Virus record (IMG/VR): IMGVR_UViG_2597489870_000005
Reading direction: 5' to 3' (one strand)
Origin: a virus
Taxonomy: Duplodnaviria > Heunggongvirae > Uroviricota > Caudoviricetes
Length of the DNA stretch: 45,486 bases
Shown: piece after piece, positions 3,993 through 28,226 of the stretch
Numbering within the stretch: the first letter of the stretch is position 1
Layout of the letters: every line of letters begins with the position of its first letter
The notes under the pieces: generated by a model
Databases searched by the model: none
Told to the model about the DNA's origin: nothing
What the model saw: only the letters and a program-made list of their open reading frames with translations
Made by a program: the position numbers and the translations under genes

Positions 3993-4021
3993 ACAAAAAA
4001 GCCCGCCTGAACCGGCGGGCT
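3993..4021 (-). terminator. Rho-independent terminator downstream of lom
   Basis: GC stem gcccgcc/ggcgggc (4001-4007 / 4014-4020), loop tgaacc, then U-tract on minus strand (3995-4000). Confidence 0.7.
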
Positions 4022-10630: not shown

Positions 10631-13600
10631 TTAACATTCCCCCATCACGTCGCATATTTAACAGATTGCCCTGCACCCGCTGATCAACCATCCCCATAAG
10701 TGCTTTTATTGCCTGAGGGCCAATCTCTCCATTCTGGCCGTCATTTTGAATAGTGATTTGGTATACAGGGGCATAGGTAATATCTCCGCCTCCATTACCA
10801 CTTTTACTATTAATAGCTCTGACACCAAGAGAACCATCGGAAGTTCGTGTTAATGGCATAATGGCTTCCGGTCCAGCCTCACCAAAAACACCAGCCCCTT
10901 TTGCAAAAGCAAAAAATTGCGGGGAATCATAAATACCGTTCGAATACGTGCTCAATGACGGAGACTCATAAACACCGCCCTTTGCATTCGGAATAAATTT
11001 ACTAATAGCACTCCCGATAGTTCCTAAAATCCCCCCAGAAGAACTGTTACTAATGCTGTCGAAAATCCCAGTAATTGAAGCCTTTAATGCTATTCGACTA
11101 AGATCCGAAATCACGGAAGTAGCGAAAGAACGAAAATTTGCCTTGCCTGTCGTGACAAAATCACCCAGCGCATCGGTCATCCCATCAAACATCTGAGTCG
11201 TGGTTGATTTTATCTGCTCACTGATATCCTTAGTGTCATCCAGCCAGTTATTGAATCCCTGGGAGGCACCACTAACCCAGTCTCCTGCCTGAATATCGAG
11301 CTGCTCGTTTTTCTGTCTGACAATTTCTTTTTCCCGTTCCAGAGCATCATTCAGAGCCTGCATTTTCTCTTGAAAAACATGATCTGACATTCCACGGGAT
11401 TTATCTGCATAGTCACGTTCAAGTTGCAGACGCTGATTGTTATATCCATGTTCAATCCGCAGTAATTCCTGCTGGCGTTGCTGATTTTTATCGCCAACCC
11501 CATAACCAGCAATCTGAATATCATACCCCTGCTGACGATTATCAATCGAAGCCTGCAATGAATCACGCCATGCTGTTATTTCGGCGGATTCCTTGATTAG
11601 CCTGTTATTCTTTTCAATCGCAACATTTTTCTCCATCAACGCGGTTATTTCTTCCCGGTGTAAGAGAAGCGATTTCTGATCCTGGGTTAATTTCGATGAT
11701 GGTCGTGACTCTAGGTCGGCAATCCGCTGACGCCACTTAACCAGTTCCTGTTCAGAGGAACTTAATTTAACGGTCAACTCAGCTTGTGAACTTAGTAACG
11801 CATTCTGTTGATTCAGATGATCAATCATTCGTTGGGCTGCATCATCAGAATAACCTTTCGCCTTTGGTTGCTTTGGATCTTTATAACGCTCATTTATTTG
11901 AGCGATAAGATTATTATATTCTTCCTTTGAATACTGATTCTTTAGCTTTTCCAGTTTTGCAAGTTCACTAGCTCTCTGCTGCTCCCGGGTCTGATATTGT
12001 TTTGAAAAGGCATCTGCTCTCTGTCTGAGTTCAATTCCTTCCTGTTGTCGCTTGTTGTAATCGTTTATTGATGAATTTAGTACGTCCTGAGCAATTTTTT
12101 CTGCTTGAAGTACGCCCAATTGCTGCTTTAATCGTGCCAGCCTTTTATTTTGAGCTCCGCCATCTCCAATGCCACCTAACCCGAAAACTCCGGGTCGGGT
12201 ATTTTTTTCTATTTCATCAATTTGACGGAGAACATCTGAGATTTTTTGATCAAGGGAGGTCTCACGGCCAATATCCAGCATGGAATCCCATGCCCATTTT
12301 GCGGAGTCTGCGACAGCTTTCCATGCAGTCTCAAGATAACCAAGATTTTCTTTAATCTGGTTGGTGCGCTGGATCATTGAGGATGAGTATTCTTCTGTCG
12401 CAATGCGGGCGGCCTCCTGCTGGTTCCCTTCATCCTGTAGCGCCTTAATCTGGTTATAAGTCGCAAGTGTCAGAAAATGGTACTGATCATTAAGTTTTGA
12501 TATGGCACTGACAGGATCCTTTGCAATTTCATTGAAGTCATTAACCAGTTGTTCGGTTGATATTCCTGTTACTTCGCTCGTTTTTACTATCGCTGTCGTC
12601 ACTTGCTCCAGCGAACTGCTCGCTACCTTTCCCGAACGCACAAGCTGATTTAATACTGCCGCCGCAGCACCAGTTGTCGAATCAGCCGCATTCCCGGCAC
12701 GTTGAGCTATATCGCCCAATTGCCCGCTGGTTGTCCCCAACTGATTTCCGGTAAGAATAAGAGATTTATTAAATTCGTCCTGCTCCTGAGAGCCTTTATA
12801 GTAAGCCAGTCCTAAGACCCCAACGGCTGCTGCGGCCAGGGTAAAAGGATTAATTAATCCCAGCACATAAGAACCTACACCTTTGATCGCCGGGCCAATC
12901 CCACCGAACATATCTTTTAGCTGGCCGCCCTGCTGCATTAACACCATAAATGGCGACTGACCAGTGGACAACCCAACAACAATATCCGTCATTTGTGCAG
13001 GCAACATGCGCATAGCAAAAGCCGTTTGTTTTGCCGACATTCCGGTTTTGCTTAATTGTGATTGAGTAACCTCAAGCTCACTCCGCATAGCACGAAGTTT
13101 TCCAGAAAGCTCCTCATACATTTCAGGAGAAAGCATCCCCTTAGCTTTTGCTTCATTGAGCTGTTTCTGTTGTTCTACCAGACGATTAAAAGCAGTTCCG
13201 ACAGGATCAAGTTGAGCAATCAGACGTTGCAAAGCAACAACCTGTTCATCATGCGCTTTTGCTGCTTCTCGCTCTGCCTGAGCCTCTCCGGTAAGCTCTC
13301 GCCGTGTTTCCTGTATTTTTCGGCTATAATTCTCAAACTGAGAACCATTTATTTTCCCGGATGCAAACGCAGCATTAAGTTCATCATGCTGTTGTTCAAG
13401 ATTTCTTAGCGCCGCAGCCAGAGGGTCGATCTTGTCCAGCATTCTTTGAAAGGCCTGAGCCTGCGCTTCCTGCTGGGCGGCAGCAAGTTTTCCGGCCTTC
13501 TCGGCTTCTCTCTGCGCTTGCGCAACCCCGCTCAATTCCTCTGTGGTTTCATTAAGTTTACGGACAAGAAATTCATATTCTTCTTTATCAATAAGCCCTT

Positions 13601-14871: not shown

Positions 14872-15801
14872 TCACGGCAGCCGGGGAATTTTTTTTCTGG
14901 TTATCGTAGGTGCTTCATCTGCTGCGGTAATGCTCAATTGAACCTGGATAATGTCGCTATTACCCCCATCAGGCCATTCACCTGACACCTGAACCTTCGG
15001 GAAACTGAAAGTGTATGTCCCCTCTCCATTCGAAAGCGTGAAGCTGAACGGAACTGTTTCTCCAGTCAGTGTTTTACTCCAGATTTCCCACGCGGCTTTA
15101 GACCATGAAAGCGTCACCGTACCGGACGGTGTAAAAGTAGTCGGAATATTTGCTCCTGCATAAGGCGAGCCAGTCCCGATACAACGCTGTGTCTGGAGTT
15201 TGTTATCGAACTGAATATCAAAACTGTCGATACAAAAACCGTTACCTCCGGCAACACCATTCAGGCTTACTGCTGAAACCTCCTTAAACGAATAACGTAG
15301 CTTTCCTGCACTATCCACAGGTTCGCCTTTGATAAAATTCGTATCATCGGCCTTTGATTCCCAGTCCAGTCCGGCAAAGGTTACGGTCGCTGTAATATCG
15401 CCGTCGTTAGGGATCTGCATTTTCCATGAGCCAACCTGCGCTCCTCTGACGACAGAGGCAATTCCGACATCGGACGCATAGGTCGCCAGAGAAAATGTTA
15501 TTCGCTCATTCCCCATTGTCAGAGAATCGCCTGACCATTCCGCGCCGAAACAGGATGCAAGAAAATCATCATGTTGACCCCAGCGAAATTTGGTACCAAC
15601 ATCACCGCCGACATCCACAGTGCCAGGCGTCGCCCCCTGAGCCATCCGGGAGCCACCAATCTCATTATTTTCGCCTTTATTCTGGGTGGGTTTTACTCCC
15701 CAGCTTGTGCGTTTTAATAAACTCCAGTCACCACTTGCTGGCGTAGTGCCTGCAACCGTCTCCCGGATAAATGCCGAGATAACCTTTGCACCTGAACTCA
15801 C
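14872..15801 (-). CDS. Major tail tube protein (not lambda V type)
   Basis: 309-aa ORF immediately upstream of the G/T chaperones; position-based call. Confidence 0.6.
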   Translation of the reverse strand: MSSGAKVISAFIRETVAGTTPASGDWSLLKRTSWGVKPTQNKGENNEIGGSRMAQGATPGTVDVGGDVGTKFRWGQHDDFLASCFGAEWSGDSLTMGNERITFSLATYASDVGIASVVRGAQVGSWKMQIPNDGDITATVTFAGLDWESKADDTNFIKGEPVDSAGKLRYSFKEVSAVSLNGVAGGNGFCIDSFDIQFDNKLQTQRCIGTGSPYAGANIPTTFTPSGTVTLSWSKAAWEIWSKTLTGETVPFSFTLSNGEGTYTFSFPKVQVSGEWPDGGNSDIIQVQLSITAADEAPTITRKKIPRLP

Positions 15802-22210: not shown

Positions 22211-23521
22211 TTAAATCCGAAGTGATGTGACTCTTCCGGTCGGTTTGACAATAGGGAATTGCTTAACGATGAAATAACCTCCGGCATCATTCGGGTGATC
22301 ATTGCCAGATTTTTTATCAGGCTCCCCCTTATCATCCCAGACCTGTTGCTCCAGAGATTCGGCATATACCGGACAACGCTTCACATTAACTTTATAGCGA
22401 CGCTCACCATTGGCATTGCAGAACATTGCATTCATTGAGTTAACGCGATCTTTTACTGGCGGGTTCGAGCTGTTCACCACAACGTTAAAACCAGCCTGCT
22501 TAAGCTGGGCTATATCCGTCGTACTTGCGTTACTTGATTTTCTGGAATCCCCGGAAGCATCTGGATAAATATAAATTTCCCTCACTTTCCGGTAATCATT
22601 CCCATCATACAGCCAGAAGCGTTCTTTAATGATGCGGATCATATCCGGCGTATCGTAGGCATTGATGATTTCAGTTACCGCACATGGAAGCCCCAAACGC
22701 AGCACATGGACGATTCCCGCCATCTTTCCAACGTTAAAATCCATCCCAATATAAATCGGCTCCCCTGGCTGCTCCACTTCTTCGCAATTATTCAGTTTCC
22801 GGTCAAACTGATGGTAAACAGTACCACTTGTCAGGTTAGTAAACTGTCCTCGAAGATAGGCTTTAATCAGCTCTGGAGGGTATGATTCAAGAAGCGAAGG
22901 AATGTAATCTGCTGGCAGGTTCTTTTCATTATCGAAAGTAGATGCCTGCACCAGACCATACAGTGAGGCCAGCTCTGTTTTTTCACGCACGGCTTTAACA
23001 AACTGCTCGTAGACAAATTTGAATCCTTCCGGCGTGGTTGTAACGTCAATACCGTTGCGAAGTCCATCAATCTTATAACGCATACGTGCAATTATCTTGC
23101 GCCACGCCGTTCTGGCTTTTTCCTTCGGCAAAATGTCCAGTTCATCCACCAACGCATTACCAATTTTGAAACCGACGATCGTTTGTGGCTTCTCCATCGA
23201 TCTGCAGATAGTGGTTCCCCGATACTGGCGTCCGTAATAAAAGTGAACCTCTTTATTTCCCTCATTAATTTTTACGTTCAATCCCCAGTCAGCAGCAACT
23301 TCTTCCACTGTAGGGTAAAAAATATCGCGAATTTGGGGATACGTTGGCGCAAAATATCCCTGATTTATACCTGGATGCTCCCAAATCCCCTTGCATATGC
23401 CGCCACACCCAACCCATGTTTTGCCCGAGCCAAAACCAGCAATATAGGCTTTAAATTTATGGGGCATTGAAAGAAATCGCGCCTGAGGCACATTAAGCGT
23501 CGGAGAGATCATCTTCATCAC
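22211..23521 (-). CDS. Terminase large subunit
   Basis: 436-aa ORF with Walker A motif AGFGSGKT near N-terminus; canonical position. Confidence 0.85.
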   Translation of the reverse strand: MMKMISPTLNVPQARFLSMPHKFKAYIAGFGSGKTWVGCGGICKGIWEHPGINQGYFAPTYPQIRDIFYPTVEEVAADWGLNVKINEGNKEVHFYYGRQYRGTTICRSMEKPQTIVGFKIGNALVDELDILPKEKARTAWRKIIARMRYKIDGLRNGIDVTTTPEGFKFVYEQFVKAVREKTELASLYGLVQASTFDNEKNLPADYIPSLLESYPPELIKAYLRGQFTNLTSGTVYHQFDRKLNNCEEVEQPGEPIYIGMDFNVGKMAGIVHVLRLGLPCAVTEIINAYDTPDMIRIIKERFWLYDGNDYRKVREIYIYPDASGDSRKSSNASTTDIAQLKQAGFNVVVNSSNPPVKDRVNSMNAMFCNANGERRYKVNVKRCPVYAESLEQQVWDDKGEPDKKSGNDHPNDAGGYFIVKQFPIVKPTGRVTSLRI

Positions 23522-24587
23522 TCCTTACTCTGGCATCAACCACATTAATATTGATCGCCACAGGCTGGGGATGTTCATTATCTTCCACCGTTTCGATCTC
23601 TTTGCGCAGCTTCTGGTTTTCCATTCTGCGCCGTTCAATTTCCAGTTCCTGTAGCCGTTTATCTGCACATAAAGCCCCGCCAGCAGAAAACAAACGCAAC
23701 AATTCACGCCGGGCGGCAGCCTTATCCTCCAGCAGGATCTCAACGCCGAATTTTCCGAATTTTGCCCCTGCATATAATTGCCGCGCATCCCCATCAAGCA
23801 GAGTGGTATCAGCCATATAAAGCTGTCCCGTTCCCTCACCGCAGCACTTCGGGCAGTCCGGATTGGGTATGGCGTTATCAACAAAGCCGAGGCCTCCATA
23901 TTCCGGTTCGGGTTTGCCATCTCTGGAAGCCTGCGCCGCTGCCTTGTCGAATTCTGCTATATCGCGCCACTGGTAGAGATGATTCTCGCCCCAGCAATAA
24001 CGGCAGTTAACACGGCGAAATTGTGCAAGCTGATTGGGGTCGGCCAGGACAATAGCCATCAACTGACTCACTAGTAAATCCAGGTCTGCGGTATAGCGTT
24101 TCTGGTACTGATTGCGGAAGTAGCTGATAGCGCGAAAAACCCTGGCATTTCTAAGCATACGACTGGCGTTGCTGTTAGCTGTCGCACCTTGCCCCTCATA
24201 ACCGGCTAGTCGGTACGCCTCTGTCGGCTTTTTACCCTGAGCAACAAGCATCGCAAACTTAGCCTGCTGGTCAGAAATGCCGAATTCATCGGGACAGAAC
24301 GAAAATTCCTCCGCGTCGCCCTCATTCAGGCCCGCATCGAATACTGGCTTTTTTTCCTGAGATTTTTCGTTCCGCTTTTGTGCAGTCTGCGCAGATTTTT
24401 TCTGCGCACTTTTTTGCGCAGTTTTGCACATTTCTGTCTGCGCATTTTTCGGAGTTTTTTTGATGTAACGACGGGCTGTTGCGTAATTCAGTCCCCTTGC
24501 TTCACACCATGCCACCGGAGATATACCGGAGCGGGTGTATTCAGCAATATACTCCTGCTGCAACGCCCCCCAGTCCGGTCTGCTCAT
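23493..24587 (-). CDS. Terminase small subunit-like DNA packaging protein
   Basis: 364-aa ORF with N-terminal HTH-like segment and Cys-rich region; overlaps terminase large start. Confidence 0.5.
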   Translation of the reverse strand: MSRPDWGALQQEYIAEYTRSGISPVAWCEARGLNYATARRYIKKTPKNAQTEMCKTAQKSAQKKSAQTAQKRNEKSQEKKPVFDAGLNEGDAEEFSFCPDEFGISDQQAKFAMLVAQGKKPTEAYRLAGYEGQGATANSNASRMLRNARVFRAISYFRNQYQKRYTADLDLLVSQLMAIVLADPNQLAQFRRVNCRYCWGENHLYQWRDIAEFDKAAAQASRDGKPEPEYGGLGFVDNAIPNPDCPKCCGEGTGQLYMADTTLLDGDARQLYAGAKFGKFGVEILLEDKAAARRELLRLFSAGGALCADKRLQELEIERRRMENQKLRKEIETVEDNEHPQPVAININVVDARVRSDEDDLSDA

Positions 24588-24590
24588 CAG

Positions 24591-24842
24591 TTAGTCCTGA
24601 TTTTTATCCACCCTGAGTAGTTCGCGCAGAGCAAAGGCATCCCCTTTTCTGGCAAGCTTAAACAATGCCGCTCGTAACTCGGCTTCACCTTTCGCTCTGC
24701 CCTTACGGATGGCCGCATAAAAATCTGTCATTGCTTCCCGATTTTCTTTCAGTCGGTTCAGATCAACATCCAGAACGTCAGCGATTTGTTGTGCAGTCAT
24801 CCGGCACGCTGCCAGAGACTCGACTTTCGAATACGGAATCAT
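24591..24842 (-). CDS. Small putative DNA-binding protein upstream of terminase
   Basis: 83-aa ORF (possible start at MTAQQIADVL); translationally coupled to terminase small gene. Confidence 0.4.
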   Translation of the reverse strand: MIPYSKVESLAACRMTAQQIADVLDVDLNRLKENREAMTDFYAAIRKGRAKGEAELRAALFKLARKGDAFALRELLRVDKNQD

Positions 24843-25710
24843 TTGTCACCCCCATTGATATGCAGGGTGTCTTCTTCCTGTATTTTTCGTGAAGGATTTT
24901 TACTGCAGCGTTGTTCCAGGTGACCTGATGGTGAATGCGTTTATGGCTGGCACCCATCAGTGAGATTTTTACGCACGACGGCGCATACATGACGGAGTAA
25001 AAACTTTTAACGTAGGTTCCGGAATCCAGATACAGCTCGGTCATTCCGCCGCTGTTTTTCTGCGTCTGTTTCTGCCCTAACTGGACAGCACCGATCGTCA
25101 TAAACAATTCACCACAGCGACCGAGATTCGTGTACGTATTCACATCCTCGTTAATGCGCCCCATGAATGAGAACGGTCGATCAACCGAACAGATAAAGCT
25201 GTTCATTGCCTTGCGTTTCACCCACGAAGCATGGCCGCCATTGTCACCAAGAAAATCCCCGCCCTGCGACATAGCGATGGAAAGAGCAGGTATTGATTCG
25301 TAGTACGCCAGCATTTCAGAAAGGATCGCATCCAGTTTCCTTATCGGAAAATAGGCCTGGTCATAGTTGCGATCCACCCGAAACTGGAACTCGTGATAAT
25401 CATCATCGAGCTGAATGAAGTATTTACACCCGACCAGTTTTGCCAGGTCGAAACAGGCATTACGGGCGTAAAAAATTGAGCGGCGGTCACAGAAATTATC
25501 GGCTTCGTCAAAACGACTGGCGATATCGGCTTTGGAAAACACCAGCACCTGTTCACCAAATTCAGCCATGTACTGATGCCGTGTCTTATCTTCATCATCA
25601 ACAACGATAAAAATTTTCCCGGTATAGCCAGCACGACGCAACGTCCGGTAAGTCAGAACTTTGTCCGGTCGCCCGTGAGTCAGAATAAAGGCGCAAAAAT
25701 CATCACGCAT
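24778..25710 (-). CDS. Uncharacterised 310-aa protein with DxD-like motif (possible nucleotide-sugar transferase fold)
   Basis: Start MRDDFCAFILTHGRPDKV at 25710 overlapping ParB-like stop; motifs IFIVVDDED and IQLDDDYHEF; fold assignment is inference from motifs only. Confidence 0.5.
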   Translation of the reverse strand: MRDDFCAFILTHGRPDKVLTYRTLRRAGYTGKIFIVVDDEDKTRHQYMAEFGEQVLVFSKADIASRFDEADNFCDRRSIFYARNACFDLAKLVGCKYFIQLDDDYHEFQFRVDRNYDQAYFPIRKLDAILSEMLAYYESIPALSIAMSQGGDFLGDNGGHASWVKRKAMNSFICSVDRPFSFMGRINEDVNTYTNLGRCGELFMTIGAVQLGQKQTQKNSGGMTELYLDSGTYVKSFYSVMYAPSCVKISLMGASHKRIHHQVTWNNAAVKILHEKYRKKTPCISMGVTNDSVFESRVSGSVPDDCTTNR

Positions 25711-26494
25711 ATTCCTCCTCCTCACCACCATGCATGATCTCCACCATGCGCTGCGTCATCCGGACAAATCCATTTTCAATAGCCTGCTGATAATCAATGA
25801 TCACCAGCGCCGACTCCTCGAAAAAACACTGAATTTCAGAGGGGGCGTGAGCGTAATAGTCCGCAATTCTGCTGAAATTAAACACCGTGTGACGTTCTGC
25901 CGCACACAGGAGGAATTTCTCAATATCAGGCTCAAGGGACGCCGAACGTATCCGGCTGATCAGCTCCTGAGTTTTCGTATCGTCGTACAGTTCACTGATA
26001 TCCGGTTTACCGCCCGACGGCTCATAAACAGGCGTATCAATTTTCGTCGTATACGGCTCCTCCTCATTTCCTGTACCGGGCAAAACATCCGTCAACAGTT
26101 CATCAATTTCTGTCGGGATGAAGCCTGTCAGGGAGACATCAAAATCAGCATTGATTAGGTCCGACAGCTCCATCCGCAACAGATCTTCATCCCAGCCAGC
26201 ATTCATCGGCAGGCGATTATCTGCCAGGCGGTACGCCTTTTTCTGCTCATCCGTCAGGCCAGACAGAACAATGACCGGAACAGAATCCATTTTGAGCATT
26301 TCAGCCGCCATAACACGACCGTGACCCGCAATAATTTCGCCCTTTTCGTCAATCAGCACCGGATTAGTCCAGCCGAATTGCTTAATACTTTCTACCAGTT
26401 GTGCCACCTGCTCAGTACTGTGCGTCCTGGCGTTGTGCGCATACGGTGACAATTCTTGTAATGGGCGATAGACTATCTTTAATTTCTCGCTCAT
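25703..26494 (-). CDS. ParB/Srx-like nuclease domain protein
   Basis: 263-aa ORF with ParB N-terminal domain signature (…IIAGHGRVMAA…) and acidic C-terminus. Confidence 0.7.
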   Translation of the reverse strand: MSEKLKIVYRPLQELSPYAHNARTHSTEQVAQLVESIKQFGWTNPVLIDEKGEIIAGHGRVMAAEMLKMDSVPVIVLSGLTDEQKKAYRLADNRLPMNAGWDEDLLRMELSDLINADFDVSLTGFIPTEIDELLTDVLPGTGNEEEPYTTKIDTPVYEPSGGKPDISELYDDTKTQELISRIRSASLEPDIEKFLLCAAERHTVFNFSRIADYYAHAPSEIQCFFEESALVIIDYQQAIENGFVRMTQRMVEIMHGGEEEEYA

Positions 26495-26509
26495 ACAGCC
26501 TTGCTTTAT

Positions 26510-26545
26510 GAATAAAACGCACCCCAGCAGCCAGTGCTACTGGGG
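26510..26545 (-). terminator. Stem-loop with U-tract downstream of trkG
   Basis: Stem ccccag/ctgggg (26522-26527 / 26540-26545) followed on minus strand by ugcguuuuauu; 16 nt before ParB-like start. Confidence 0.5.
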
Positions 26546-26631
26546 ACGGAGGTGTTGCTGGTAAAGTTAGGTATTGGATCAATGAGTGAGTCAACATAAT
26601 ATTAAACTCACAATTATAAATCAGCCATATA

Positions 26632-28089
26632 TTAGGAGCGCCAAAAAAAACCTGAAAACAATATAATAACAGGATAAATTTCAAGGCGACCAAGAATCAT
26701 AGCTATGCACATTAAACATTTTGCAATGTCATTAAGCACTCCGAATGACGATGCAGTAGCCCCAAAACCTAATCCCATATTATTAATACATGCAGCCACT
26801 GTTGCAAATGATGTAAGAAAATCATATCCCATACCATTTAACACCAGTATAAAAAACACCGTGAAGAGAGTATAAAGAAAAAAGAAACTCCATACAGACC
26901 TCATTACACGATCTGTAACTATCTTCCCTCCTACATTTACACTCAACAACGCTCTGGGATGAGAAAGCTGATTTATCTCGTGTTTGCTTTGTTTGAAAAG
27001 TATAAGAAATCGAAGTGACTTAATTCCACCACAAGTTGAACCTATACATCCCCCAAAGAAACTTGACAACAGCAAAAACACTATCGTGTGCGTGGGCCAA
27101 CTTGCATAATCCTGCGTAGCTAAACCATTATCAGTGAGCATGGAGCTGGCAAGAAAAAACGAATGAATAAAACTTCCATGCAAGTCATACATACCTATAT
27201 GCCAGACCTGGAAAGAGGTAACAATGATCACCCCTAAGGCTATTAACAGAAAGAAACGAAGTTCAATATCTCTGATTAAAGGTTTTATCGTTTTCCTGCT
27301 AATAACAATATACCAAAGAGTGAAGTTGAAAGCCGATAGCAGGGAAAAAGAACCAGCCACCAGCTCAACCAAATAGTTATTAAAATATCCGATACTCTCG
27401 CTATGAGTTGAGAAACCACCAAGCGAAACTGTGGAAATCCCGTGACAAATAGCATCAAACAAAGGCATTCCTGCAAGTCTATAACAGACAATACAAGCAA
27501 TACCTAATAAAGAATAAGTTATCCACAGTGTCCGTGACGTATCGGCCAGGCGGGGAGTGAGTTTGTCATCCTTAAATGGCCCCGGCATTTCTGACTGATA
27601 AAGCTTTGCACCACCAATACCCAATAATGGCAATACAGCAACCGCCAGAACAATAACTCCTAAACCACCTATAAAATTTAACTGTGACCGATAGTACAAA
27701 TATGCCCGAGGTAATGAACTAACATCATCAATTACAGTTGCTCCTGTTGTTGTTATTCCAGAAACCCCTTCAAACAGAGCATCAATGAACGTTAAATTAA
27801 GTTCTGAGTCAATCCATAAAGGGAATGCACTAATAACAGAAAACAAAATCCAAAACATTACAATTATAATAAACCCATCACGGGTACGTAATTGAATGCC
27901 AGATTTCTTAGTTGTATACCACGCTCCGCCACCAATGCAAAAAAATATAACGAAAGTTATAAAGAAAACGAACAGGCTTTTTTCTTTATAAAACAATGCT
28001 ACAACCATTGGTGGCAACATTGAAAGACTATAGAGCCAAACCAGGAACCCACACATATGAGTAACAACTCTTACATGAGATGTATTCAT
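26632..28089 (-). CDS. trkG: TrkH/TrkG-family potassium uptake protein
   Basis: 485 aa from MNTSHVRVVTHMCGF...; polytopic membrane protein matching recalled E. coli TrkG (Rac prophage cargo); AT-rich. Confidence 0.9.
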   Translation of the reverse strand: MNTSHVRVVTHMCGFLVWLYSLSMLPPMVVALFYKEKSLFVFFITFVIFFCIGGGAWYTTKKSGIQLRTRDGFIIIVMFWILFSVISAFPLWIDSELNLTFIDALFEGVSGITTTGATVIDDVSSLPRAYLYYRSQLNFIGGLGVIVLAVAVLPLLGIGGAKLYQSEMPGPFKDDKLTPRLADTSRTLWITYSLLGIACIVCYRLAGMPLFDAICHGISTVSLGGFSTHSESIGYFNNYLVELVAGSFSLLSAFNFTLWYIVISRKTIKPLIRDIELRFFLLIALGVIIVTSFQVWHIGMYDLHGSFIHSFFLASSMLTDNGLATQDYASWPTHTIVFLLLSSFFGGCIGSTCGGIKSLRFLILFKQSKHEINQLSHPRALLSVNVGGKIVTDRVMRSVWSFFFLYTLFTVFFILVLNGMGYDFLTSFATVAACINNMGLGFGATASSFGVLNDIAKCLMCIAMILGRLEIYPVIILFSGFFWRS

Positions 28090-28226
28090 ATCTAAATATT
28101 CTTTCAATTATAACCACCTTGCTGCAATATTATGATTATACTGTATAAAATTTAACTCCTCTTAGATCTTACTTCACTGTTCCTTATGAAACAATCATCA
28201 AAATGAATCATATTGTAGTTAAGATT

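Follow-up and report, generated by a model that had tools for sequence, protein, structure and literature searches.

A ParB-like protein coupled to a TET-associated glycosyltransferase ahead of viral terminase genes: a candidate two-subunit DNA glycosyltransferase

The viral record IMGVR_UViG_2597489870_000005 (Caudoviricetes; 45,486 nucleotides (nt), the whole of which is called the window below) carries two overlapping genes on its minus strand. They encode a ParB/Srx-like protein of 263 amino acids (aa) (25703–26494) and a 310-aa GT-A glycosyltransferase of the TET-associated glycosyltransferase (TAGT) family, PF20691 (24778–25710). The two genes are translationally coupled, and they are found together, mostly just upstream of terminase genes, in viruses of very different hosts. 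The pair could best be explained as a two-subunit, late-expressed DNA glycosyltransferase, a reading to which about even chances are given.

Positions 4000–45486 of the window are 100% identical to a prophage of Escherichia coli ETEC H10407. The initial annotation had described a ParB/Srx-like gene with a GHGR box that overlaps the 310-aa gene and is chained through a small helix-turn-helix (HTH) open reading frame (ORF) to the genes of both terminase subunits, terS and terL. This layout was confirmed.

The glycosyltransferase and its ParB-like partner

The 310-aa protein, which had been left without an assignable family, matches PF20691, scoring 122.1 bits where 27.5 are required (E 3.8e-35; 202 of the 205 profile positions). 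It also matches phrog_842 (E 7e-104), a PHROG named for the T-even beta-glucosyl-HMC-alpha-glucosyltransferase, and newer RefSeq records list it as 'GREB1-related protein'. Its best matches among viral structure models are TAGT-domain phage proteins. Of the two folds proposed for checking, GT-A and nucleotidyltransferase, the GT-A nucleotide-diphospho-sugar transferase fold was found. No solved structure was detectable for TAGT by sequence, and no PADLOC family matched it.

The acidic motifs IFIVVDDED and IQLDDDYHEF correspond to residues 33–41 and 99–108 of the 310-aa form. Among 93 TAGT sequences from very different hosts, D102-D103-D104 and D189 are 100% conserved, R14 and R83 are 99% conserved, and D38, D41 and H261 are nearly invariant; E188 is invariant among 26 close homologues. 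The codons of D102-D103-D104 (25399–25407, minus strand) encode the DxD metal/nucleotide-sugar motif according to conservation and the model, which places these residues at the end of a predicted strand (97–101). The conserved residues agree with the set of motifs, R...DDD...ED, that has been published for GT-A DNA glycosyltransferases of phages (Burke 2021; Pyle 2023/2024). The Pfam and PHROG matches, taken with the conserved catalytic residues, argue that the 310-aa protein is an intact glycosyltransferase and not a structural or packaging protein; homology to a component of the latter kinds was not found.

The partner gene is the full-length form of the RefSeq gene ynaK ('ynaK / ParB/Srx family N-terminal domain-containing protein'). 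Its product matches Pfam ParB_N (PF02195) just above threshold (29.3 bits, cut-off 26.3, E 9e-7), phrog_620 (E 1e-90), and PDB profiles of Noc/Spo0J/ParB (E 4e-7). In the AF2 model it consists of a ParB NTPase-fold domain (NBD), short helices, a predicted-disordered stretch (residues 136–169) and a helical C-terminal domain (CTD). The NBD, residues 1–135 (26090–26494, minus strand), contains N21, G57-H-G-R60 and D92-N93, and the linker with the acidic CTD, residues 136–263, is encoded at 25706–26089 (minus strand). A Foldseek search with the NBD of the model returned Noc, CTP-bound ParB, PadC, KorB and Srx. The NBD also matches the N-terminus of the PADLOC MTase_II model (E 1.5e-38), so that it appears closest in sequence to the ParB-methyltransferase fusions. 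N21, G57 and N93 are at least 98% conserved among 92 partners. Box II (residues 57–60) is present in the window protein, with the nucleotide-binding arginine at its end as judged from sequence.

In the partner, the motif Y148-T-x-K-I-x-x-P155-x-Y157-E-P is invariant within the predicted-disordered linker, and R201, Y214, E226 and D234 are invariant in the alignments of the CTD. The three tyrosines Y148, Y157 and Y214 are thus among the invariant residues. No Pfam family was found for the C-terminal part. The CTD alone matches 1189 clusters among 1.84 billion representatives, and it is always C-terminal in the best 150 of these 1189 clusters. Sub-threshold matches to PF23887 (mycobacteriophage L5 gene 47-like; E about 0.04–0.05, about 20–33 residues) were seen in three divergent partners and located at window 25706–26080, L096 5459–5878 and L090 7172–8026; they are below interpretable strength.

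A partition ParB was considered and rejected. No HTH was found by Pfam or in the model, no parA in the annotation of the prophage, and no parS-like or notable inverted repeats nearby; the partition family TIGR00180 reached 38 bits against a cut-off of 58. A known defence system was rejected as well, the partner matching only the ParB part of the PADLOC MTase model. By sequence profile and fold, the partner is a member of the ParB/Srx family and not a partition ParB.

Both ORFs are real genes: thousands of homologues exist for each of them, and both have curated Pfam matches above threshold. Read from its first ATG, the downstream ORF (24778–25731) encodes 317 aa; started at an internal ATG at 25710, it yields the 310-aa product, which is the RefSeq form and also that of the dominant database cluster P0002 (2693 member sequences). 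At the translational-coupling junction (25703–25723, minus strand) this ATG (25708–25710) is preceded by a purine-rich, Shine-Dalgarno-like run, GAGGAGGAGGAA, at 25712–25723, and the stop codon TGA of the ParB-like gene (25703–25705) gives an overlap of 8 nt. At its other end (24778–24850), the TAGT of E. coli has a C-terminal extension of about 22 residues that is missing from the 285–290-aa orthologues in other Enterobacteria and overlaps the next gene by up to 65 nt.

Obligate pairing and position ahead of the terminase genes

A one-genome-per-species collection was scanned from the partner, which gave 80 loci with 81 CTD-carrying ORFs, three of them at a contig edge. The next ORF after the partner is a TAGT in all 78 evaluable loci (78/78). 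In 76 loci the distance from the stop codon of the partner to the start of the TAGT domain is −10 to +83 nt, and the TAGT of the other two has an N-terminal extension. The loci come from Enterobacteria, Clostridia, Veillonella, Bacteroidota, Kiritimatiellae, Gastranaerophilales, Saccharibacteria, Spirochaetia, Alphaproteobacteria and others. Starting from TAGT, the pair was found in prophages of Yersinia, Hafnia and other enterobacteria, and in soil and other metagenomic contigs; when viral contigs were scanned with the TAGT alignment, nearly everything recovered was near-identical E. coli prophage sequence, and no diversity was gained. Cultured viruses with the pair include Lactobacillus phages phi jlb1 and c5, the latter virulent, halovirus HHTV-2, Nocardia phage NTR1 and a Porphyromonas phage.

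In Vibrio phage pv27 (191 kb), the ORF upstream of TAGT comprises only the linker and the CTD (profile positions 136–250, E 2e-47), and in about ten loci of the species scan, too, the partner is a CTD alone or its N-terminus cannot be recognised. Mean pairwise identity is 48% for the CTD and 47% for TAGT, against 38% for the NBD. Co-evolution of the CTD with TAGT in a mirror-tree comparison was modest (r 0.35, Mantel p 0.001) and is given little weight. The sole candidate for a CTD-TAGT fusion that could serve as a Rosetta stone, P0241, was a frameshift artefact of the E. coli pair.

The cassette lies just upstream of terminase genes in most lineages, and these terminases belong to different families. 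For 60 loci, the first large ORFs within 4.5 kb downstream matched Terminase_6N (25), Terminase_3 (13), GpA (6) and TerL_ATPase (1), and two further loci have a long TerS of the E. coli type; as the family matches may overlap on one protein, these counts stand for 34 to 47 of the 60 loci. Portal and capsid families also vary between the lineages that carry the pair.

Other enzymes adjoin the pair in part of the lineages. Tailoring genes of the types known from glycan hypermodification are found in some, among them sugar epimerase, GDP-mannose dehydratase, UDP-galactopyranose mutase, a methyltransferase fused to TAGT and a coupled radical S-adenosylmethionine (radical-SAM) gene; they are counted in favour of the DNA glycosyltransferase reading. 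DNA methyltransferases occur in some lineages, C5 methyltransferases in a few loci. The radical-SAM gene is coupled directly downstream of TAGT (−28 to +24 nt) in 11 loci, mostly of Clostridia (L117, L119, L121, L126, L128, L130, L131, L133, L139, L140 and L145). In this way a three-gene cassette is formed ahead of terminase in about one lineage in seven. The radical-SAM protein, of 310–330 aa, is generic, and no NCBIfam equivalog fits it.

Several variants of the enzyme were observed. TAGT is fused to a C-terminal SAM-methyltransferase domain at L127 3518–5275, and it has an N-terminal extension of about 200 aa without an assigned family at L128 6456–7901 and L167 502–2004. Two tandem TAGT paralogues stand behind one partner at L002 2207–3938, and L167 contains a second pair, of a CTD-only protein and TAGT. 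In a metagenomic phage with the ParB-TAGT pair, two family-2 glycosyltransferase genes are located downstream of the capsid gene (L006 15837–16894, L007 8659–9716); these are possibly virion glycosylation genes.

Acceptor, target and proposed function

In the proposed two-subunit DNA glycosyltransferase, the 310-aa GT-A/TAGT protein would be the catalytic subunit and would bind the nucleotide-sugar donor through the DDD motif. The 263-aa protein would be the accessory subunit, whose linker motif and acidic CTD work with the transferase; they may bind it, or help to present or open the substrate. The NBD could serve as an optional module for regulation or targeting; domains of this kind are fused to DNA methyltransferases of phages, and some phage thymine dioxygenases require them. 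The pair would be made at the start of the late/packaging transcript. Its most likely target would be replicated phage DNA, glycosylated before or during packaging, and the sugar would shield this DNA from host nucleases or mark it.

A DNA target is suggested by the family. The T2/T6 beta-glucosyl-HMC-alpha-glucosyltransferase belongs to PF20691, and the characterised phage members of the TAGT family all act on DNA. TET-associated phage GT-A enzymes glycosylate 5-hydroxymethylcytosine (5hmC) and resemble the base-J glucosyltransferase (Burke 2021; Pyle 2023/2024). The acceptor of the known relatives is always a hydroxyl, provided by 5hmC, 5-hydroxymethyluracil (5hmU), glucosyl-5hmC or, for GREB1, by Ser/Thr. 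Two recent papers count large sets of 'solitary' phage TAGT/GT-A genes that have no hydroxymethyl pathway and are left unexplained; the pair belongs to this unexplained majority of solitary phage glycosyltransferases.

Comparison with characterised systems shows where the window pair departs from them. The T2/T6 enzyme shares with the window TAGT the Pfam and PHROG family, the GT-A fold and a phage origin, although T-even phages were not among the tblastn matches of the window TAGT at E 1e-5. The T6 enzyme acts alone, on alpha-glucosyl-5hmC supplied by a dCMP-hydroxymethylase pathway and an alpha-glucosyltransferase; the window phage has neither, and its TAGT has an obligate ParB-like partner. 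The phage 5mYOX/TET-associated GT-A enzymes have the common fold and the R...DDD...ED set, and their genes are often near ParB, terminase and sugar-tailoring genes. These enzymes, however, use 5hmC made by an adjacent C5 methyltransferase and dioxygenase, both absent from the window prophage (Burke 2021; Pyle 2023/2024). Kinetoplastid JGT and animal GREB1 have GT-A domains that are grouped with phage TAGTs in the literature only. JGT uses 5hmU from JBP, GREB1 glycosylates a protein, and neither has a ParB-like partner.

For the partner, the closest parallel in layout is ParB176, the activator of 5mYOX176 (O'Toole et al., PNAS 2026). Like the window partner, ParB176 has an NBD, short helices, a long disordered linker and a CTD, lacks a DNA-binding domain, and is encoded beside a post-replicative DNA-modifying enzyme. 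It is needed for the action of a thymine dioxygenase on dsDNA and shows relative specificity for the enzyme with which it is paired (O'Toole et al., PNAS 2026). The client of ParB176 is this dioxygenase, whereas that of the window partner is a glycosyltransferase; the likeness is one of described architecture. The window partner resembles the 5mYOX-associated activators in this respect and would serve a different enzyme. The ParB-methyltransferase fusions (PADLOC MTase_II; Kaljevic et al. 2025) match in the NBD and are enriched in prophages, as is the window pair. There the enzyme is a methyltransferase fused to the NBD, whereas in the window the NBD is fused to an adaptor domain and the glycosyltransferase is separate and coupled. 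Spo0J, Noc and KorB share the N-terminal NTPase fold and Box I/II/III-like residues with the window partner, which differs from them in having no HTH/parS-binding domain, ParA or ParA-binding motif, in its strong acidity and in its CTD. Earlier work has already linked ParB with phage DNA-modification genes in the neighbourhood of terminase (O'Toole et al. 2026; 5mYOX work), but no paper was found that describes the strict ParB-TAGT pair or its adaptor domain.

A number of observations weigh against the proposed function. The first group concerns the acceptor. The complete prophage has no TET/JBP dioxygenase, thymidylate-synthase-like hydroxymethylase or C5 methyltransferase, and phage Dam is the only DNA methyltransferase in it. 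A hidden dioxygenase or hydroxymethylase was searched for in the unannotated ORFs of the window that are large enough, and none was found. The complete 31.8-kb genome of phage c5 likewise has no recognisable dioxygenase or hydroxymethylase. TET_JBP occurs in no Pfam-annotated context of the pair, and neither TET_JBP nor Thymidylat_synt is among the families matched by at least two of 150 neighbour clusters; for the 80-species sample this negative rests on a list of the top 25 families, which single occurrences could escape. The TAGT of the window therefore lacks the feature for which its family is named, genomic association with an acceptor-making enzyme. A thymidylate-synthase-family gene is present in the quarter of the genome of Vibrio phage pv27 that was inspected. 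No literature report was found of a modification in any phage with the pair.

The second group concerns the proteins. GREB1, a relative from the TAGT family, O-GlcNAcylates a protein. The partner is strongly acidic (pI 4.5 and net charge −25 in the window; pI 4.1–4.7 in the twelve representative partners compared), and neither Pfam nor the model revealed a DNA-binding domain in it; proteins that handle DNA are not usually of this type. The partners from Nocardia and Porphyromonas have another residue in place of the Box II arginine, and Vibrio pv27 and several CTD-only ORFs have lost the NBD altogether, so DNA clamping driven by nucleoside triphosphates cannot be essential. The C-terminal half of the TAGT model has low confidence, and so does the CTD of the partner model, which is too weak for fold assignment. 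Finally, two genes of the H10407 prophage, for the tail tube and for replication (gene O), are flagged in RefSeq as frameshifted (window about 14872–15801 and 34975–35852; 10841–11802 and 30976–31808 in L001 numbering). This prophage may be defective though its packaging region is intact.

These properties of the partner bear on two earlier claims. The initial annotation had proposed a modification module composed of a nuclease-like DNA-binding protein and a possible transferase. An accessory ParB-like protein and a transferase encoded with the packaging genes are retained from it; the nuclease or DNA binder is not, given the charge of the partner and the missing DNA-binding domain. The CTD-only partners, the conservation of the CTD and the losses in Box II instead point to the CTD, and not the ParB fold, as the conserved part of the partner. 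The constant companion of the enzyme is thus the CTD, to which the ParB fold is an add-on.

The missing acceptor enzymes could be accounted for if the pair comprises a classical transferase for hydroxymethyl-pyrimidines or glycosylated hydroxymethyl bases. The acceptor would come from an enzyme that escapes recognition, such as an unannotated phage or host hydroxylase or, in some lineages, the radical-SAM enzyme; alternatively, the window copy could be a low-activity leftover of a pathway. Acceptors of the types 5hmC, 5hmU and glucosyl-5hmC are what the family name and all chemistry known so far would predict, and phage 5mYOX genes most often have ParB, glycosyltransferase and terminase genes as neighbours. 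The radical-SAM gene coupled to TAGT in 11 loci, the C5 methyltransferases near the pair in a few loci, and two window ORFs of 200 and 149 aa without a family would also suit this explanation. It is nevertheless rated as rather improbable. The complete prophage and the complete c5 genome are without a recognisable dioxygenase or hydroxymethylase, and the radical-SAM gene occurs in only about one lineage in seven. Moreover, all 78 of the 78 loci keep the pair with intact catalytic residues and without such a partner, which speaks for an autonomous function and not for decay.

A different solution is a protein target. TAGT could O-glycosylate a phage or host protein, the ParB-like protein being adaptor or substrate and not a factor directed at DNA. 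The candidates are a virion or packaging protein, for which a location beside terminase and portal genes would be suitable, or the partner itself, modified on an invariant Tyr or Thr of its linker. Y148, Y157 and Y214 are invariant, and the Y-T-x-K motif is situated in the predicted-disordered linker. The activity of GREB1, the acidic partner without a DNA-binding domain and the lack of an available hydroxylated base are all in keeping with such a system. Yet the characterised phage members of the family act on DNA, and ParB-fold partners have so far been documented with DNA-modifying enzymes (dioxygenases, methyltransferases). No candidate acceptor protein is conserved either, since terminase, portal and capsid families differ between the lineages. 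Glycosylation of a protein is thus considered unlikely, though some weight is left to it.

Within the DNA glycosyltransferase reading, a bolder version could be formulated. TAGT and the acidic domain of its partner may glycosylate ordinary, unhydroxylated phage DNA, at a canonical base or another position, or may use a precursor route that has not been described. This version is put forward tentatively, with low confidence.

The packaging operon of the prophage and wider meaning

The H10407 prophage is lambdoid, extends from int to the tail fibres, and contains the Rac-type genes trkG and ynaK. The order on the minus strand is Q, holin-lysozyme-Rz, trkG, the ParB-like gene, TAGT, the small ORF, terS, terL, portal and the head/tail genes. 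A porin gene is located between Q and holin on the opposite strand. An intrinsic-terminator-like hairpin with a 10-bp stem and a T run (26522–26545, minus strand) follows the trkG moron, 28 nt upstream of the start of the ParB-like gene. Inspection of the sequence found no promoter-like site between the hairpin and this start, so that membership of the late transcript is the simplest reading for the pair. RefSeq annotates a Q gene in the prophage; by analogy with lambdoid Q antitermination, the pair would be transcribed by read-through of the Q-antiterminated late transcript.

This position also bears on the idea that each of the two genes has an ordinary role unrelated to that of the other. 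Partition is the best-known role of the ParB fold, and the ParB-like protein could act in it or in the handling of pac/cos sites. The glycosyltransferase could modify the envelope (O-antigen or teichoic acid) for superinfection exclusion, in the manner of TarP or Gtr enzymes. The genes, however, are found in a late operon behind a terminator and are not lysogen-expressed morons, and the pair is present in the virulent phage c5. Neither ParA nor an HTH domain or parS-like repeat was found near them, and the annotation contains no membrane segments or Gtr flippase partners. Adjacency and coupling are kept across Gram-negative, Gram-positive and archaeal viruses with unrelated envelopes. Separate roles of this kind are highly improbable.

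The small ORF between TAGT and terS (24591–24842, minus strand) encodes 83 aa, or 69 aa from 24800 in RefSeq. It overlaps the 3' end of the 310-aa gene. Its residues 3–77 match phrog_309, 'terminase small subunit' (E 8e-23). The Yersinia, Hafnia and L100 prophages have an ORF of 82–85 aa at this place, and none is found there in the other pair-carrying lineages examined. Judged from these matches, the small ORF is part of the terminase module and outside the modification pair. The terS gene (23493–24587, minus strand; Pfam Terminase_2, phrog_51) begins 3 nt past the stop codon of the small ORF and overlaps by 29 nt with terL (22211–23521, minus strand; Pfam Terminase_6N and Terminase_6C). Four TGCGCAGAAAAA-like units of about 12 nt are contained in 90 nt of terS (24363–24453), where they code for an AQK-rich stretch of the small terminase subunit. 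These TGCGCAGAAAAA-like units may form a repeat of the pac-site type.

A moron site separates the lysis genes from the ParB-like gene. In E. coli it is filled by trkG (26632–28107) with its own strong terminator, and in a Yersinia prophage (L008 2180–3332) by genes for LT-II-like enterotoxin A and B subunits (PF01375, PF06453). On the early/immunity side of the window, the 200-aa ORF (43169–43771, minus strand) and the 149-aa ORF (38801–39250, plus strand) have no Pfam or PADLOC family. The former is near xis/int, on the strand opposite to its neighbours, like a lysogen-expressed moron.

At least 80% of the 24000–27000 region is present in 856 of 5426 complete E. coli genomes, about one in six, and 1647 genomes have part of it. 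Regions almost identical to it are also present in deposited records that bear the names of E. coli and Salmonella phages. Among the database proteins, many forms of the partner are truncated or fused, as would fit remnants left by deletions in Rac-type prophages; the short ynaK of K-12 is presumably an example.

Glycosylation of phage DNA is a major means of evading restriction, CRISPR and glycosylase defences, and so far it is understood only for pathways that begin with the making of a hydroxymethyl base. The pair gives part of the solitary glycosyltransferase set a shape, that of a strictly paired, translationally coupled enzyme and an adaptor without a family name, which heads the packaging operon across unrelated terminase types. 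The E. coli prophage region and several cultured phages offer tractable models. The finding would add glycosyltransferases to dioxygenases as DNA-modifying enzymes that ParB-fold proteins serve as partners, a role only recently shown. If unhydroxylated DNA or an undescribed precursor route is indeed used, the pair would represent a new kind of DNA modification, mechanistically tied to packaging, encoded by a cassette that about one-sixth of complete E. coli genomes carry and that also occurs in viruses infecting many bacterial phyla as well as haloarchaea.

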